From: Desulfobacterales bacterium
GTDB lineage: Bacteria > Desulfobacterota > Desulfobacteria > Desulfobacterales > UBA5852
Length of the DNA: 64,000 nucleotides
NCBI GenBank assembly: GCA_963674755.2
Contig: CAXXVS010000003.1
Span: forward strand, 1,472,001 to 1,536,000
Direction: 5' to 3'
Below the pieces are notes generated by a model that was not told the origin of the DNA, did not search any database, and was given only the letters and a program-made list of their open reading frames with translations. The first letter of the stretch is position 1, and the number at the start of each line of letters is the position of its first letter. The position numbers and the translations under genes are program-made. Positions 41,329 through 48,079 of the stretch are shown here, in pieces.

Positions 41329-41571
41329 GCGCCGCCGGACAGGACGTTTTTTCGACGGTTGGGGCCGCGCATCCACCGCTGTGGCGCCCGTCTCTCCTTA
41401 CGGGATGCTTGTCCGCTAGCCGCTTCGACGTCCCTTTGCCGTCCGGACGCCAGGCAGGCCCCCTAATCTTGTGTTAGATCAATGTCAAGTCGCACCGCAT
41501 GGGTTATCGTCGTCCATGATGAATCACCTGAAAAACATGGAAAATATGACCGGCGGAAGGGAGGTGCCGCT

Positions 41572-42396
41572 ATGAAATGGGCCCCCGAAGCGGAAAAGGC
41601 TATCAGAAAAGTCCCCTTTTTTGTACGTAAGCGCGTGCGGGCCAGAGTCGAGCGCGAAGCCGCGGCCGCGGGTAAGCCGGTGGTGACCCTGGCGGAGGTC
41701 CAGGCCACCCAGCGGTGCTACCTGAACACGATGGAAACGGAGATGCTCGGCTACCAGCTGGACAATTGTTTCGGACCCAGCGGATGCCCCAACCGCGCCG
41801 TCGAGAGCGATCAGCTTGTGCCGCGTATCCAGACCTTGCTGGAGGAGGCCGACCTGCTGGGATTCCTCAAGGACACCGTCCGCGGAAAACTGCGGTTTCA
41901 CCACGAGCTGCGGATTGCCGTGGCCGACTGTCCCAATGCCTGCTCACAACCCCAGATCAAGGATATCGGCGTCATCGGCGCCTGCCATCCAGGGGTGACC
42001 ACAAACGAATGCACCTGCTGCGGTGCCTGCGAGGCGGCCTGCCCCGAGGCGGCTGTCACGATCGATAACGCCGCGGCAGGGCCCTGCATTGCCGAACAAT
42101 GCATGGCCTGCGGCAAATGCGTGGCCGCCTGCCCCACCGGCACGCTGGCCGCCGGCTGTACCGGCTACCGCGTGCAATTGGGCGGCAAGTTGGGCCGCCA
42201 TCCGCGTTTGGCCGCCGAACTGCCGGGTATTTACGACGCTGATAGCGTGCTCGCCATCATCCGCGATTGCCTTGCCCTATACAAATCACGCAGCCGCAAC
42301 GGCCGGCGTTTCGCCGAACTGCTGACAGCGGCGGATATCGAGTGCTATGGACGCCACGGACGCTTCCCGGAGGAAGACGCCGTTAACCGATCCTGA
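41572..42396 (+). CDS. Nitrite/sulfite reductase-like 4Fe-4S domain protein with ferredoxin insert and N-terminal PCP_red-like domain
   Basis: WAPEAE..KVPFFVRKRVR; CFGPSGC, DCPNACSQPQIKDIG; CTCCGAC..CP, CMACGKC..CP; GGKLGRHP. Confidence 0.78.
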   Translation: MKWAPEAEKAIRKVPFFVRKRVRARVEREAAAAGKPVVTLAEVQATQRCYLNTMETEMLGYQLDNCFGPSGCPNRAVESDQLVPRIQTLLEEADLLGFLKDTVRGKLRFHHELRIAVADCPNACSQPQIKDIGVIGACHPGVTTNECTCCGACEAACPEAAVTIDNAAAGPCIAEQCMACGKCVAACPTGTLAAGCTGYRVQLGGKLGRHPRLAAELPGIYDADSVLAIIRDCLALYKSRSRNGRRFAELLTAADIECYGRHGRFPEEDAVNRS

Positions 42397-42519
42397 ATTG
42401 ACTTGTCACGGCATGGCCTTATCCTGTGGGGCAGGGAACAGGCCCAACGCCTGCCATCAGGCCGGGAGGGCAGGGAACTGCCCCGGCCGGCAACAACCCT
42501 ATGGATCGGAGGAATCACC

Positions 42520-42690
42520 ATGAGAAATGTCGATAAACAAACCTTGAACTGCCTGAATTCGGAAAGGCAGCAATTGATCGATGAGGTCCGCCGCTGTGAT
42601 TTCTGCTCTGCGAACATGGAAGACCACAGCCGCTGTTACGAGGACGCGGCCCGCGAGAGCGGCGCACGTTCCAAGAGCTGTTTTATTTGA
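42520..42690 (+). CDS. Small Cys-rich hypothetical protein (56 aa)
   Basis: GGAGG RBS; MRNVDK..RCDFCS..HSRCY..KSCFI. Confidence 0.6.
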   Translation: MRNVDKQTLNCLNSERQQLIDEVRRCDFCSANMEDHSRCYEDAARESGARSKSCFI

Positions 42691-42727
42691 GCCGTGGTTG
42701 CGTCTAACCAGGCCAGCGGGATTCACC

Positions 42728-42758
42728 ATCGAAAGTCCGGCTATGCCGGACTTTCGAT
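42728..42758. terminator. Perfect 14-bp hairpin upstream of copZ-like gene
   Basis: ATCGAAAGTCCGGC-tat-GCCGGACTTTCGAT. Confidence 0.5.
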
Positions 42759-42798
42759 TTCCCAACGGGCCAGCGGACAGGGAAATCAGGAGGTCGCC

Positions 42799-43002
42799 AT
42801 GTCCAAACAAACATTTCATATCCCCAATATTTCCTGTGGTCATTGTGTCATGACCATCAAAAACGAATTAGGTGAACTGACGGGCGTCCAGTCGGTGGAC
42901 GGCACCCCGGATACCAAAACCGTGGTGGTCGAATGGGAGGCCCCGGCCTCGGAGGAGGCCATCCGCGACTGTCTGCGGGAAATCAATTACCCCGCCGAGT
43001 GA
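42799..43002 (+). CDS. Heavy-metal-associated (CopZ-like) chaperone
   Basis: IPNISCGHC HMA motif; AGGAGG RBS. Confidence 0.88.
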   Translation: MSKQTFHIPNISCGHCVMTIKNELGELTGVQSVDGTPDTKTVVVEWEAPASEEAIRDCLREINYPAE

Positions 43003-43437: not shown

Positions 43438-44820
43438 ATGCTATTCAACTCTTACGTTTTTATCGGCCTGTTTCTGCCGGCCTGCCTGATCGTTTACTAC
43501 CTTTTTTACCGGAAAAGAACCGAGCGGCTTCTCGTCCTCCTGGTGGCGAGCTTCATCTTCTATGGTTATTGGGACTACCGTCTTTTGCCCTTGTTTGCCG
43601 GTTCCATATTAGGCAACTGGCTCATCGCCAAATGGTATTACCGCACAGCCCACAAATTCGCTATTCCGTTGGGCGTCTTTTTCAACGTTCTGCTGATTGC
43701 CATTTTTAAGTATGCGGATTTCCTGGCGGATTCCTTCGCCTACGTCACCGGGGCCAACCGGACGCCATGGGAGATCATCCTCCCCCTGGGGATCAGTTTC
43801 TTCACCTTTCAGCAGATTTCCTACCTGGTCGACCTGAAAAGAGCACGAGAAAATTTTCGCCCGTTGCACGAATACGCCCTGTACGTATCGTTTTTTCCGC
43901 AACTAATTGCCGGCCCCATCGTGCGGTGTTCGGAAATTGTGACCCAGTACGATCTCAACCCCATGCGCTCCGGTCTGTACGAGCGTCTCTCCAAGGGCTC
44001 CATGCTGTTTATTATCGGCCTGATGAAAAAGGTCTTTATCGCTGATCCGTTGGCGAGCACCGTGACGCCTATTTTTAACCATACCGCGGTTTCCGGGGCG
44101 GTATCGATGGCCGATGCGTGGCTGGCCAGCATCAACTATATGGCACAACTTTATTTCGATTTCTCCGGGTATTCGGACATGGCCGTGGGGCTCGGCCTCC
44201 TCTTTGGGTTTCAATTGCCCTTTAATTTCAACATTCCCTACATTTCCAAGTCGATCAGCGAGTTCTGGCTACGATGGCATTTGACCCTGTCCCGGTTTTT
44301 GCGGGATTATCTGTATATTCCGCTGGGCGGCAGCCGTCACGGTCTGCAACGGCAGATGCTGGCCCTGTTTATCACGATGTTCCTGGCCGGTTTATGGCAC
44401 GGGGCCGGCTGGGTCTATGCCGTGTTCGGCATCCTTCACGGATTGGCGCTTTGTATCAATCATTTGTGGCGCAAGGCCGGGTTCCGGCTCCCGACATTGC
44501 TGGCGTGGCTTACATTCATGATTTTTTTCATTACGTCACTGGCCATCTTTCGCTCTGCCAATATCGCTACTTCGCTGGTAATGGTGAAATCCATGTTTGG
44601 CCTGGATGGGTTTTCCTTTGCAACCAAAGGCGATTATAATGAAGGGTTATTGATTGCGGGTATTCTCATATCCATGGTGGGACCCACCAGCCAGGATGTG
44701 GTCCTTCGCGATCTACGCCCCTCCCCTCTGCTGGCAATAGCGATGTCGGCGGCGATGATCTATACGGTTTTGACGATTGGGAACCATGGCTATTCGGAAT
44801 TTATTTACTTTCAGTTCTGA
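43438..44820 (+). CDS. MBOAT-family O-acyltransferase (AlgI/DltB/PatA-like)
   Basis: MLFNS, LPLGISFFTFQ, FFPQLIAGPI, YFDFSGYSDMA, WHLTLS, GLWHGA, FIYFQF. Confidence 0.93.
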   Translation: MLFNSYVFIGLFLPACLIVYYLFYRKRTERLLVLLVASFIFYGYWDYRLLPLFAGSILGNWLIAKWYYRTAHKFAIPLGVFFNVLLIAIFKYADFLADSFAYVTGANRTPWEIILPLGISFFTFQQISYLVDLKRARENFRPLHEYALYVSFFPQLIAGPIVRCSEIVTQYDLNPMRSGLYERLSKGSMLFIIGLMKKVFIADPLASTVTPIFNHTAVSGAVSMADAWLASINYMAQLYFDFSGYSDMAVGLGLLFGFQLPFNFNIPYISKSISEFWLRWHLTLSRFLRDYLYIPLGGSRHGLQRQMLALFITMFLAGLWHGAGWVYAVFGILHGLALCINHLWRKAGFRLPTLLAWLTFMIFFITSLAIFRSANIATSLVMVKSMFGLDGFSFATKGDYNEGLLIAGILISMVGPTSQDVVLRDLRPSPLLAIAMSAAMIYTVLTIGNHGYSEFIYFQF

Positions 44821-45949
44821 GGACGGCTGGAAGTCTTACTGGAAAACCTTTCTGCTGACCGGCCTAAGCGTCACCCTGCTGATTTACGGGTCGTTTTATA
44901 TTATCGATCCTTATGACTGCTACCCGTTTTCCATCGAGGGCGAAAGGGTGCCGGTATCCAGCGACGCACGCTATTTTCACACCCTGCTGGCCCGCAGCGA
45001 CCGTTTCGACAGCGCCATCATCGGTGCCTCTACCAGCCGTAACCTGCAACCCCATCAACTGAATCCCCTTTTTCAGTCGGCGTTTGTTAACCTGGCCTTT
45101 AATTCGGCATCGGCCTACGAGCAGGACCGGATGCTCGATCTTTTCATCCGTCACCATGCCAACGTCAAAACCATCATCTGGGGTTTGGACATGGTCTGGT
45201 ACACGACCCAGGATGAGTATCGCCGGTTCACTAGACCAGACGAAGATTTTCCGGAGTGGCTCTATCTACCGGATGCCGACCGCTGGAAGCAGCCCCTGGC
45301 GTTTAATCTGAAAAATATCGAACACAGTTTCAATCAACTCTTGTTCATGCTGGGCCTTAAACAGTTCGAATATGGGTTGGACGGTTTCACGCCTTATCAC
45401 AGGAGGAAACCAATGACATTGGAGCAAAAACGGATGAGGATCTATGGCTCAAAGTCGCCCAAGGTGAAAAAGGCTGTTTATCCTCCGACGGTGTTGTCAC
45501 CGGAAAAGCTGGCCAGCCTCGTTTTCCCGGCGGAGGTGATCCTGAAGGCCGGTCTGGACCGCCTCCCGGATCGAACGGAAAAAATCCTTTTTTTCCCGCC
45601 CTACCACTATTATCACCAACCTGCGGAGGGCAGCCGTGAGGCGCTCGTCCTGGCGGAATTTCAACGCCGGGTGGCCCGTTTGGCCGAGCGTTACCATAAT
45701 ATTTACGTCTTGGATTTTATGATCCGATCGCCTTTCACCACCAACGATGATTTATATTTCGATAATATCCACACCACCCCGAAAGGCGGCCTGGAACTGG
45801 GCGATCAATTGTTTCAAGCAACCCAGCACGACGACCGGCCGGATAGTCGTGTATTATACCGGGTGCACCCACCGAAAAGCGCCCCCAGCGATCATCAACT
45901 GAAAGCCAGCTTCCGCAAAAACGGCGCTCTTTCCCGGAAGTCCCCCTGA
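44786..45949 (+). CDS. Membrane-anchored SGNH-like partner of the MBOAT (acyl-transfer accessory); start uncertain
   Basis: N-terminal TM then DPY, IIGASTS, NLAFNSA, C-terminal DNIH (DxxH); overlaps MBOAT stop. Confidence 0.65.
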   Translation: MAIRNLFTFSSEDGWKSYWKTFLLTGLSVTLLIYGSFYIIDPYDCYPFSIEGERVPVSSDARYFHTLLARSDRFDSAIIGASTSRNLQPHQLNPLFQSAFVNLAFNSASAYEQDRMLDLFIRHHANVKTIIWGLDMVWYTTQDEYRRFTRPDEDFPEWLYLPDADRWKQPLAFNLKNIEHSFNQLLFMLGLKQFEYGLDGFTPYHRRKPMTLEQKRMRIYGSKSPKVKKAVYPPTVLSPEKLASLVFPAEVILKAGLDRLPDRTEKILFFPPYHYYHQPAEGSREALVLAEFQRRVARLAERYHNIYVLDFMIRSPFTTNDDLYFDNIHTTPKGGLELGDQLFQATQHDDRPDSRVLYRVHPPKSAPSDHQLKASFRKNGALSRKSP

Positions 45950-46009: not shown

Positions 46010-46037
46010 TGTAACCAAAAAGGGCGATAGCGGTCTA
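46010..46037 (+). promoter_or_regulatory. ECF sigma-type promoter
   Basis: TGTAACC-N15-GGTCTA upstream of the small ORF/ECF/anti-sigma operon. Confidence 0.6.
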
Positions 46038-46206
46038 TATCCCTGTTATGGCAACATTCGTTTTATAGAGAAGGGCCTTTCCCATTCCTGGACATCCTGC
46101 ATCGGGCCGCCGTGAGGCTTTTTCTCCTGATGGGGTTCTGGGGCCTGGACACCAAAAAACGGTGGACAAAACTACGCCAAATCATTATGGATAAGGAGTT
46201 AATGCG

Positions 46207-46374
46207 ATGGGAGAATTATTGCTGCCGCTGATTGTGCTGGGCGTGTGGTTCGTGCTGCAAATCTATATCCTGCCCAAATTCGGCGTCTCGACGTGAATGC
46301 GCAATGCTTGTCAGTTGACAAGCAAGGATGAGCCGACAGGAGACCATGAAGGGGAAGACCACCGTACGGGATGA
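46207..46374 (+). CDS. Putative small single-TM selenoprotein (55 aa, in-frame TGA 46294-46296); 29 aa if TGA is a stop
   Basis: AAGGAG RBS; MGELLLPLIVLGVWFVLQIYILPKFGVST-TGA-MRNACQLTSKDEPTGDHEGEDHRTG; SECIS-like hairpin 3' of TGA. Confidence 0.62.
46305..46324 (+). promoter_or_regulatory. Bacterial SECIS-like stem-loop
   Basis: TGCTTGTC-AGTT-GACAAGCA, 8-bp perfect stem, GU in loop, 16 nt between TGA and loop. Confidence 0.6.
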
Positions 46375-46960
46375 GGATTTCGAACTGGTCCAGGCCATCA
46401 ACAGCGGCCGGACCGAGCTGTTTTCAAAGCTGGTGGAGAAATACCAGCAAAAGCTCTACAATTTCGGTATGCGCATGTGTGGGGAACCCCGCGATGCGGA
46501 AGATCTCGTCCAGGAGACCTTTCTGACGGTCTATCGCTACTTGAGCGGGTTTCGCTATGAAACCAAATTCAAGAACTGGATGTACCGGGTCGCCACCACG
46601 ACGTGCATCAAAGCCAAACGCAAGCCCAAACATGCCCCGGATTACGAATTGTCGCTGGAGGATTATTTGCCTGGCGAGGGGGAGGATCTCCCCGACCAGG
46701 CTCCCGGCTGGGCCCAGCGCCCTCTGGACCAGCTTTTGAACGAAGAACTGGCCCGCCGCATCGAACAGGCGGTCTTAGAATTACCCAAAAAATACCGCAT
46801 GGTGGCGGTGTTAAGAGATCAGGAGGGCTTTTCCACCGAAGAAACCGCTCAGATACTCGACATCTCCGTAGCCAACACCAAGGTCCGTTTGCATCGGGCC
46901 CGCCTTTTCCTGCGGGAGAAACTCAAAGGATATTTCGATCATGAGCCAACACCGGCATGA
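46346..46960 (+). CDS. ECF RNA polymerase sigma factor
   Basis: DAEDLVQETFL, FKNWMYRVA (region 2); LPKKYR..FSTEETAQIL..TKVRLHRAR (region 4); AGGAG RBS. Confidence 0.94.
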   Translation: MKGKTTVRDEDFELVQAINSGRTELFSKLVEKYQQKLYNFGMRMCGEPRDAEDLVQETFLTVYRYLSGFRYETKFKNWMYRVATTTCIKAKRKPKHAPDYELSLEDYLPGEGEDLPDQAPGWAQRPLDQLLNEELARRIEQAVLELPKKYRMVAVLRDQEGFSTEETAQILDISVANTKVRLHRARLFLREKLKGYFDHEPTPA

Positions 46961-47195
46961 CCATCACAATTGCATGGCGTTGTTCGAGAAGATGTCGGAG
47001 TATATCGATCGTGAACTGAGCGCTGAGGACCGGGCCCAGGTCGAAGCCCACATTCGGGCCTGCTGCCAGTGCCAGGCCTGCTACGAGACGCTGCAGCGCA
47101 CGGTGGACCTGTGCCGCTCGTCTACCCAGGATTACCCCATGCCCGACACCCTTACCGCCAAGCTGCGCGCGTTGATCGAAGCGGGTGGTCACTGA
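46941..47195 (+). CDS. Soluble zinc-binding anti-sigma factor (zf-HC2/ZAS)
   Basis: C..MSEYIDREL..EAHIRACCQC (HxxxCxxC); no TM; overlaps sigma gene. Confidence 0.9.
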   Translation: MSQHRHDHHNCMALFEKMSEYIDRELSAEDRAQVEAHIRACCQCQACYETLQRTVDLCRSSTQDYPMPDTLTAKLRALIEAGGH

Positions 47196-47317: not shown

Positions 47318-48079
47318 TCAGGTCCCGGAGCGTTCCACCAGAATTTTCGCCGCTTCTTCGGTGCTGAGGGAGAGGCGGTAACCCCGCACCTTGATGTCGA
47401 TGGCACCGGTATCGGTGTCGGTCCGCAGGACTTCCACGATCCCGCCGGGCGTGATTTCCAGATCGGCCAGCTTTTTGCTGATTCCCCCCCGGCCCCTGAT
47501 TTTGACGATCTTGCCGCGTTGATGGCGGCGCAGGTCGTTCAGGGGGATGGTGTCCAGCTGGTCCCCCTCGATATCCTTCTGGCGTTGCCTTAGGTCTTCG
47601 AGACAGCGGGCCAGGGAATCCTGGCAGGTGACAGCGCCTTCCTGGCGGCAGTGATTGTTGAAGCCCTGGATCAGACTTTCACCGCCCCGGGGACAGATTT
47701 CGATAAATTCCACGAACCGGATGAGACGGTCCAGAATGGTGCGGGATACGGCATGCTCCATTTTGCATGCGGCCTCCGAAGCCTCGGCTTTGTCGACGCA
47801 GAGTACTTTGGTGAAGAAGTCCATCAGGGCTTCATGCCGTCGGACCACGTCTTCGGCGTGTTTGTGTCCCTTGGAAGTCAGGGTGATGACATCATAAGGG
47901 GCGTAATTGATGTAGCCCCTCTCGGAGAGGGTGCGCAGGGCTCCGGTGACCGATGAATTATTGACACGCAGCCGTTTGGCGATGTCTTTGGCACGGGCGG
48001 CTTGTTTGGCCATGACAATGTGGTAAATTGCCTCCAGGTAATCTTCCATGCTCGCGCTGAGTTCGTCCACCGGGCTCAT
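47318..48079 (-). CDS. DtxR/MntR-family metal-dependent regulator with C-terminal FeoA domain
   Basis: SMEDYLEAIY, SSVTGAL, RRHE..EACKMEHA, FeoA-like KLADLEITPG. Confidence 0.92.
   Translation of the reverse strand: MSPVDELSASMEDYLEAIYHIVMAKQAARAKDIAKRLRVNNSSVTGALRTLSERGYINYAPYDVITLTSKGHKHAEDVVRRHEALMDFFTKVLCVDKAEASEAACKMEHAVSRTILDRLIRFVEFIEICPRGGESLIQGFNNHCRQEGAVTCQDSLARCLEDLRQRQKDIEGDQLDTIPLNDLRRHQRGKIVKIRGRGGISKKLADLEITPGGIVEVLRTDTDTGAIDIKVRGYRLSLSTEEAAKILVERSGT

Follow-up and report, generated by a model that had tools for sequence, protein, structure and literature searches.

In a 64,000-nt stretch of the genome of a Desulfobacterales bacterium (contig CAXXVS010000003.1, positions 1,472,001 to 1,536,000; here called the window), a very short gene for a putative membrane selenoprotein lies on the forward strand directly in front of the genes of an extracytoplasmic function (ECF) sigma factor and a zinc anti-sigma factor (ZAS). 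The small gene (46207-46374) starts with the ATG at 46207 and is preceded by the Shine-Dalgarno (SD) sequence AAGGAG at 46193-46198, as read from the sequence; a strong SD of -4.3 to -11.6 kcal/mol is found in all 28 close homologues. The gene encodes one hydrophobic helix, the residues LPKFGVST, then an in-frame TGA (46294-46296, codon 30) and MRNAC, and the frame stays open to the TGA at 46372-46374, giving a product of 55 residues with a predicted selenocysteine (Sec, U30) and a cysteine (C35). A candidate bacterial selenocysteine insertion sequence (SECIS) follows at 46305-46324, the 5' arm of which also codes for C35 (46309-46311). The ECF gene, recognized by Pfam Sigma70_r2 and r4_2 and by TIGR02937 over their cut-offs, begins at 46328 or 46346, in both cases inside the read-through tail of the small gene, and ends at 46960 on the same strand; it is followed by the gene of a soluble anti-sigma of 84 residues with a zf-HC2 domain (46941-47195, forward strand; Pfam E 1.2e-8). 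What the preliminary description of this DNA had read from the letters, namely the ribosome binding site, ATG, helix, TGA, open frame, hairpin and ECF overlap, is correct throughout.

TGA30 is very probably decoded as selenocysteine, and it is the comparison with homologues that makes this case, since the hairpin of the window taken by itself is unremarkable. The first 40 residues were used as the query in a survey of 401 sampled genomes of the window's phylum (E ≤ 0.1), which gave matches in 172 genomes, and every match among the 150 listed of the 189 contains one TGA. From the 189 matches, 130 were examined, which are the 30 best, with the window included, and 100 picked from the list. Codon 30 is TGA in all 130 of them, with TAA or TAG in none, and also in all 28 close copies, and the next in-frame stop in the same 130 loci is TAA in 48, TGA in 46 and TAG in 36. 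A cysteine follows at +5 from U30 in 101 of these loci, at +6 in 15 and at +9 or +10 in 3, and the insertions before this second cysteine preserve the frame (offsets 5, 6, 9 and 10). The TGA is replaced by a cysteine codon in other homologues. With a profile, 1299 protein clusters were matched at E ≤ 0.001, and among the best 150 of these the residue at the U position is Cys in 71, with the same motif behind it, Trp in 28 and another residue in 7, and 44 entries end exactly there; the Trp entries are probably due to gene callers that read TGA as Trp. Cys forms also make up 49 of 80 metagenome loci, which were found with a query built from the Cys form, and 8 of 22 loci of the myxococcal phylum. 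If TGA30 were an ordinary stop, the product would have 29 residues, and the hairpin would have some other role or a second mini-ORF would start at the following ATG. Such an ATG is indeed present in 83 of the 130 loci, and databases carry the 29-residue form, but codons that are not starts (CTG, ATA, CTC, ATC, GCT and others) replace this ATG elsewhere, and the constant TGA in front of a next stop that uses all three codons, the frame-preserving insertions, the Cys forms and the occurrence of the hairpin with TGA rather than Cys copies together render an ordinary stop extremely unlikely.

The hairpin has a stem of 8 bp (46305-46312 pairing with 46317-46324) and a loop of 4 nt that starts 16 nt after the TGA and has G in second position. 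Its folding energy of -11.4 to -12.8 kcal/mol corresponds to z = -1.69, with 13 of 200 shuffled sequences folding as well, and in the window genome 33 of 3109 long ORFs that end in TGA have a hairpin as strong, a looser rule being passed by 578. The picture is different for the family. Of the 130 phylum loci, 122 have a hairpin with G at the loop start, versus 27.7 +/- 4.4 in 100 rounds of synonymous recoding (at most 37); as further controls, such a hairpin follows the true stop in only 18 of 130 and lies in the upstream coding sequence in 22 of 130. At stem pair 5, changes on both sides are frequent (C-G in 21 and T-A in 21 of 45 copies; T-A in 20, G-C in 18 and C-G in 12 of 57), and covariation was counted in pairs that had not been used to select the set. 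Among metagenome loci of similar G+C content, all 31 TGA copies (23 of them distinct) have the hairpin versus 19 of 49 Cys copies. The bacterial SECIS model given in PMC13188914 describes a loop of 3-9 nt, a stem of 4-16 bp, G in the first two loop positions, a distance of 16-37 nt from the UGA and a minimum free energy of -7.5 or below. In our own coding of this model the window hairpin passes, in agreement with the geometry that had been claimed for it, as do 101 of 130 phylum copies, 23 of 28 close copies and all 31 metagenome TGA copies versus 18 of 49 Cys copies. RNAalifold returned no consensus for 30 ungapped SECIS regions, because the hairpin lies at +16 in some lineages and at +22/23 in others, which is why tests on each sequence were used instead.

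The window genome has the machinery for Sec insertion, with one selA, two selB (C1:790172 and C2:1902839) and two selD genes (C1:776949 and C3:2083622, each with one TGA), all over cut-off, and two tRNA-Sec genes (C1:791274 and C2:1226048), so that selA, selB, selC and selD, which had been proposed as a check, are all found. Since selA is present in 371 of the 401 phylum genomes and thus nearly ubiquitous, its presence cannot discriminate the peptide-positive genomes; 11 of the 172 genomes with the peptide and 19 of the 229 without it lack selA, and all 11 of the former carry selB over cut-off or a SelB wing. Four genomes of one genus (G008, G050, G087 and G121, 61-79% complete) have no selA at E ≤ 1e-60 but do have selB or a selD with TGA; their SelA may be divergent. 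In myxococcal genomes, SelB accompanies 12 of 14 TGA copies and 6 of 8 Cys copies and so does not separate the two forms. One myxococcal genome of unstated completeness (G431, locus L217) carries TGA in its copy, with a weak hairpin behind it, while selA, selB, a SelB wing and tRNA-Sec all went undetected, which speaks for an ordinary stop and against Sec decoding; this copy may be a relic after loss of the Sec system. As expected, a genome with a Cys form (G401) lacks the Sec machinery. The Cys form at L133:3088-3135, from a genome that lacks Sec machinery, still has a weak hairpin where the SECIS would be, as if Sec had been exchanged for Cys not long ago. The selenoprotein that the preliminary description had proposed is thus well borne out by TGA or Cys at codon 30, a conserved cysteine after four further residues, the SECIS geometry and the Sec machinery.

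With respect to its architecture, the peptide is predicted to span the membrane once, with a helix of residues 4-22 (46216-46272, forward strand; mean Kyte-Doolittle value 2.52), followed by the motif LPKxGxST-U-x4-C. Conserved positions are W14, P23, G26, T29 and the U/C pair; past about residue 38 the tail is variable and predicted to be disordered. An AlphaFold model contains only a helix of residues 5-29 and a disordered tail (pTM 0.34), and no match to the peptide was found among solved structures. Lys and Arg are more frequent on the C-terminal than on the N-terminal side of the helix in 124 of 124 phylum copies and in 27 of 28 close copies. According to the positive-inside rule, the side of a helix that is rich in Lys and Arg is the cytoplasmic one. 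The peptide is therefore likely oriented with its N-terminus outside, which would place U30 and C35 at the cytoplasmic face of the membrane.

The family is widespread. A QmoC-like gene in a relative agrees with the Desulfobacterota, the phylum that the preliminary description had in mind. The peptide is present in 48 of the 61 nearest genomes and in 23 of 201 genomes of the myxococcal phylum, and the cluster of the ESM Atlas that comes closest to a Cys form, annotated as 'hypothetical protein', has Planctomycetota as its commonest phylum (5 members with a record), for which reason the metagenome loci may be planctomycete. A word search with the single sequence gave no homologues, which reflects the sensitivity limit for a short recoded protein. 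Viral matches (L001 and L002) covered only residues 27-43, with no membrane helix in the L001 frame, and were set aside as chance, as was a Bacteroidales match (L134) with stops upstream. The preliminary description regarded the gene as hidden and new and expected gene callers to truncate or miss it. Truncation is what is found, as the form stored in the public protein collection is the 29-residue stub, and there is no curated model: Pfam and NCBIfam 20.0 gave no family at E ≤ 1 for the window protein and only weak, unrelated matches for 30 homologues, and the DF family model has no match at this locus. Novelty holds only in part, since the family is listed among the predicted selenoproteins in Data S1 of PMC12013277, as a label with sequences only. 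By-eye comparison assigns the window protein to this family, six entries of which share the N-terminal helix, the motif LP[KR][LM]G[IV]xT-U-[ML]xxxC, a charged tail and a length of 50-60 residues. The label does not occur in the text or Table S1 of that paper, and its original source was not found; the family is absent from the table of a 2022 review (PMC9312934) and from Table 1 of a 2026 review of 119 prokaryotic selenoprotein families (PMC13188914), and the term 'lovleyi' is absent from the text of the latter, from the main text of PMC5029168 and from the text and supplements of PMC2398784. In the literature searched, no description of the range, Cys forms, topology, neighbours or regulation of the family was found, nor were there published accounts of its link to ECF and ZAS or of the promoter, sulfur-handling regulon and possible selenium gate that are treated below. 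On sequence grounds, the peptide is a real, widespread and under-annotated selenoprotein that had been predicted earlier.

The anti-sigma of the window has the characters of a ZAS, with zf-HC2, the HxxxCxxC motif, no transmembrane (TM) helix and an adjoining ECF gene, and in all 69 related anti-sigmas the motif is kept and a TM stretch is lacking, which agrees with the soluble zinc type that had been described. Whether homologues of the peptide also stand beside ECF and ZAS genes depends on the lineage. An ECF gene lies directly downstream in 18 of 27 further close loci, and an anti-sigma or sigma gene directly upstream in 38 of 80 metagenome loci, many of them on short contigs, and in 5 of 22 myxococcal loci; in most of these metagenome loci the anti-sigma adjoins the peptide and no sigma is seen beside it. 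Among the 130 phylum loci only 5, with the window included, have the ECF directly downstream, and the other 125 have neither ECF nor ZAS in the fetched flank. Close orthologues of the ECF (E ≤ 1e-52) occur in 9 of the 401 genomes versus 172 for the peptide; all 9 carry the peptide somewhere, and about 160 peptide-bearing genomes have no such ECF. Conversely, none of 12 other related ECF-ZAS loci has a peptide gene within about 1.5 kb, 8 of them being in genomes in which a single-sequence query found no peptide. A quick ECF tree with long branches puts the ECF-adjacent copies of the window's order into one clade (SH-aLRT 96) and leaves the orthology of the metagenome and myxococcal ECFs unsettled. 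As the adjacency occurs in three lineages with different gene order, the association is recurrent, and the link to ECF and ZAS is real but not obligatory. At one locus, two selenopeptide genes stand in tandem before the ECF (L252:1588 and L252:1813), and four myxococcal Cys forms (L225, L226, L231 and L228) have no second cysteine and a C-terminal extension of 144-148 residues, three of them lying behind ECF and ZAS genes.

A candidate ECF-type promoter is found upstream of the small gene at 46010-46039 on the forward strand, with TGTAACC as the -35 element (46010-46016) and GGTCTATA as the -10 element (46032-46039). The motif, TGTAACC followed after 14-15 nt by GG(C/T/G)TC and an AT-rich stretch, heads the operon in 18 of 20 close loci that were extended, and with a matrix trained on relatives the window promoter ranks fourth in its genome; a scan for sigma-70 promoters upstream gave nothing above chance. 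In 13 of the 20 extended loci the promoter heads an operon of a 4Fe-4S dicluster protein, a 160-residue membrane protein, the peptide, ECF and ZAS. The dicluster protein resembles HmcB/HybA, below the cut-offs, and is of the TAT type, and the membrane protein (at L267:6071-6550, reverse strand, for example) has no family over cut-off; the two may form a small quinone-linked module. In the window, the 4Fe-4S gene and most of the membrane gene have been deleted, and a 3' remnant of the latter is recognizable by eye at 46085-46177 (forward strand) from its match to the C-terminus of the L267 protein (FLDILH...KKRWT). Of the 80 metagenome loci, 12 have TGTAAC upstream with G(C/G)(A/G)TC following after 16-19 nt, and the reverse strand has no such site in any of them. 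In the 125 phylum copies without ECF and ZAS, a TGTAAC-type site occurs upstream in 9, which equals the reverse strand and thus indicates that these copies share no such promoter. A contig from an RNA library is about 89% alike over 46152-47182, and a further piece of 230 nt covers the small gene, although such contigs cannot show transcription.

The promoter pattern also points to possible further targets of the sigma factor. In 17 related genomes the pattern search gave 32 sites, 30 of which were read: 11 belong to the operon itself, 7 precede YeeE/YedE genes, 4 fusions of rhodanese and metallo-beta-lactamase domains, 2 YgaP and 1 thioredoxin genes, 3 are at DUF6125 genes, probably inside coding sequence, and 2 are at unrelated genes. 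Of the five best matrix sites in the window genome, two stand in front of genes that look by eye like the same two types of fusion. A YeeE/YedE pair behind a near copy of the window promoter is located there at C1:1133209-1134400, and the same is seen in 7 genomes of the genus. Genes of such kinds are found in persulfide-response regulons, in part according to PMC9774590. A TGTAACC-type promoter with sulfur-handling genes as targets can thus be predicted for this sigma factor.

The neighbourhood of the peptide in other lineages has a similar flavour. Within 1.5 kb, the 80 metagenome loci have genes of YgaP in 30 cases, cytochrome bd-like proteins in 20, ArsR in 13, thioredoxin in 12 and TauE in 7, with the YgaP and cytochrome bd-like genes downstream of the peptide, and the 130 phylum loci have FmdB zinc ribbon proteins in 32, thioredoxin in 17, ArsR in 11 and YgaP in 4. 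Any of eight thiol, sulfur or metal families is found within this distance in 53 of 130 phylum and 58 of 80 metagenome loci versus 1.1% of random windows of the window genome. Other surroundings are also seen: seven loci (L021, L022, L030, L031, L036, L040 and L061) have a 3D-domain gene upstream and an unclassified gene of 143 residues downstream, and in another lineage a GSU2086-family gene lies upstream of the peptide (L053).

The account that fits best is that the membrane selenopeptide is an effector of an ECF/ZAS-controlled regulon for reactive-sulfur or thiol stress, and we regard it as moderately probable in its entirety. Selenocysteine decoding, family range and gene order come from comparison, promoter, targets and topology are predicted, and the mechanism goes a step further. 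The peptide would expose its U-x4-C pair on the cytoplasmic face behind the single helix. In the window's order, the adjacent ECF sigma would drive the regulon and would be held by the soluble anti-sigma until the cysteines of the latter become oxidized or persulfidated, as can be conceived from the SigR/RsrA model. The free sigma factor would then transcribe the TGTAACC-type promoters of its own operon and of YeeE/YedE, rhodanese-dioxygenase fusions, YgaP and thioredoxin. The peptide itself would most likely serve as a membrane-anchored relay for sulfane sulfur or disulfides, in which the selenol would attack an S-S or S-SH group and the cysteine five residues further on would resolve the adduct, and thioredoxin or the Fe-S/membrane module may recycle it. 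In this account the peptide is often encoded beside its regulator and is not an obligatory third subunit.

Several observations weigh against this account. In 11 of 130 phylum copies no second cysteine occurs within 12 residues, and 72 of the 130 loci have none of the mentioned neighbours and no ECF or ZAS. The eight neighbour families were picked after the loci had been seen, with profiles built from them, FmdB zinc ribbons alone make up 32 of the phylum loci, and related genomes are not independent, so that the enrichment is overstated. The reversed promoter pattern gave 20 sites where the true pattern gave 32, 5 of the 30 sites read precede unrelated genes or lie in coding sequence, and the 11 sites at the operon head are circular, as the pattern was derived from operon sites. 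Moreover, the data do not separate sulfur stress from metal or oxidative stress, and Sec insertion is read from sequence comparison, with the relay activity a proposal.

Two other functions can be considered for the peptide. In the preliminary description, it was the sensor of a three-part switch, a membrane protein that senses redox state or metals and directly oxidizes, reduces or binds the soluble anti-sigma. The part of this that stands is the adjacency to ECF and soluble ZAS in three lineages with different gene order, and it can be added that the anti-sigma stays by the peptide in most of the metagenome loci that have one, with no sigma seen alongside, and that both proteins are predicted to present thiols or selenols in the cytoplasm. 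The obligatory character does not stand, as 125 of 130 phylum copies lack ECF and ZAS, the ECF orthologues are confined to so few genomes and the 12 other ECF-ZAS loci have no peptide nearby; in addition, co-transcription from one promoter explains the adjacency without any contact. A complex prediction for the window anti-sigma with an alignment of Cys forms gave a score of 0.00, which is no evidence either way. A dedicated sensor subunit is therefore quite unlikely, and because most copies have no ECF or ZAS and the peptide is far commoner than the ECF, a co-regulated effector fits better. The module could also answer metal or metalloid stress (Hg, Cu, Cd or As), with the U-x4-C pair binding the metal at the membrane. 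The neighbouring genes include those of ArsR and MerR, a heavy-metal chelation domain and efflux genes of the CusB/HlyD type, and soft metals can displace zinc anti-sigmas. The ECF16 member SigF, which responds to heavy metals, is described as using GTAACC at -35 (PMC7826278). The predicted promoter targets, however, are sulfur-handling genes and not metal pumps or reductases, and the spacing of the second cysteine varies, with the cysteine sometimes lost, which makes a metal response very unlikely.

A further possibility concerns the regulation of the sigma factor; it may carry more weight than the sensor and metal roles and is compatible with the effector account, as both can hold together. 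In all 23 ECF-adjacent copies, the ECF gene is in the +1 frame relative to the peptide gene, and in 22 of them its ATG is found at +34 to +52 from the UGA, which is inside the read-through tail and just past the SECIS (hairpin end at +29 to +31, read-through stop at +72 to +108). With the ECF start inside the tail and next to the SECIS, synthesis of the sigma factor may depend on selenium. Only ribosomes that insert selenocysteine would unwind the hairpin and deliver the ECF start, and at low selenium, termination at UGA30 would lower translation or transcription of the ECF. Besides the geometry, the mostly weak SD of the ECF is in line with such a gate, being 0 to -3.8 kcal/mol for most starts and -5.1 once, as compared to the strong SD of the small gene; in the genus of the window, the start at +52 has -6.2 kcal/mol, with AGGAG only 3 nt before the ATG. 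There is also a precedent in Treponema primitia, in which selenium has been reported to control fdhF transcription via translation of the SECIS (PMC3892789). The likeness is that decoding of the UGA and its SECIS sets downstream expression, and the difference is that in T. primitia, by that report, the selenoenzyme's own transcript is controlled, whereas here the proposed target is a sigma factor that starts in the read-through tail. On the other side, the 23 copies belong to one related ECF clade and thus amount to about one evolutionary event, the tail is similarly long in copies without ECF (median 22), so that the overlap may simply reflect tight packing of the operon, this arrangement is not seen in metagenome and myxococcal loci, in which the sigma or anti-sigma gene is upstream, and one locus (L259) has no start codon in the expected ECF span. 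A selenium gate is therefore conceivable and at present rather doubtful. The more far-reaching combination, in which the Sec leader gates the ECF, the selenium supply sets the strength of the persulfide-stress response and the selenopeptide relays sulfane sulfur to or from the anti-sigma, is unlikely; if true, a reactive-sulfur regulon under ECF control would have selenium as an integral input.

Among known systems, SigR/RsrA (ECF12) is similar in having an ECF followed by a short soluble HxxxCxxC anti-sigma, with autoregulation and thiol-type targets being predicted here, but the window anti-sigma matches the RsrA model TIGR03988 only weakly (38.3 bits, below the cut-off of 62.5). Other ECF groups with a soluble zinc anti-sigma are ECF270, ECF271 and ECF293 (PMC7826278). 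By its description in that paper, with which alone the comparison was made, ECF270 fits best, as it is reported from deltaproteobacteria and planctomycetes with a soluble ZAS at +1, where the window also has its ZAS; neither context nor promoter is conserved in ECF270 according to that description, in contrast to the conservation of both here. The descriptions consulted for these groups in PMC7826278 mention no selenoprotein partner. The persulfide regulons of the ArsR-type regulators BigR, SqrR and YgaV, as outlined in PMC9774590, have similar targets (YeeE/YedE, rhodanese, dioxygenase-like proteins, YgaP and TauE) and are controlled by a repressor, whereas the predicted regulator here is an ECF sigma with its zinc anti-sigma and the regulon includes a selenopeptide. 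Finally, the YgaP-like TM domain (PF11127, DUF2892), a frequent neighbour of the peptide, has a C-terminal W-I-L-x-R-L-G-L-x-P-C that aligns to the residues ending at U30. This is a lead only, as the profile match is weak (hhalign probability 20%, 16 columns) with no Pfam hit, and YgaP has two helices, the peptide one.

The remaining genes around the module in the window are of other kinds. Directly before the promoter, at 43438-45949, an MBOAT acyltransferase gene (DltB/AlgI-like) is followed by an SGNH-like gene of 390 residues, and these are unrelated to the module in relatives. Further upstream (41482-43002) are encoded a sulfite-reductase-type 4Fe-4S protein with a PCP_red domain, a small Cys-rich ORF with no family (42403-42690) and a CopZ-like chaperone. 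On the other side, a DtxR/MntR-type regulator with a FeoA domain is encoded on the reverse strand at 47318-48079, convergent on the anti-sigma gene.

With occurrence in at least 172 of 401 genomes of the phylum and in 1299 protein clusters, the peptide belongs to a large family that is nevertheless stored as a 29-residue stub or misread with Trp and has no curated model, and judging from published tables, it would rank among the smallest bacterial selenoproteins. The context described here gives this barely described family a first testable functional setting. For a hitherto uncharacterised ECF/ZAS pair of anaerobes exposed to sulfide, it also provides a candidate promoter and a regulon that is predicted to serve sulfur detoxification. 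If the overlap of the ECF start with the read-through tail has the regulatory role considered above, it would possibly be a case in which selenium controls a sigma factor through UGA decoding.

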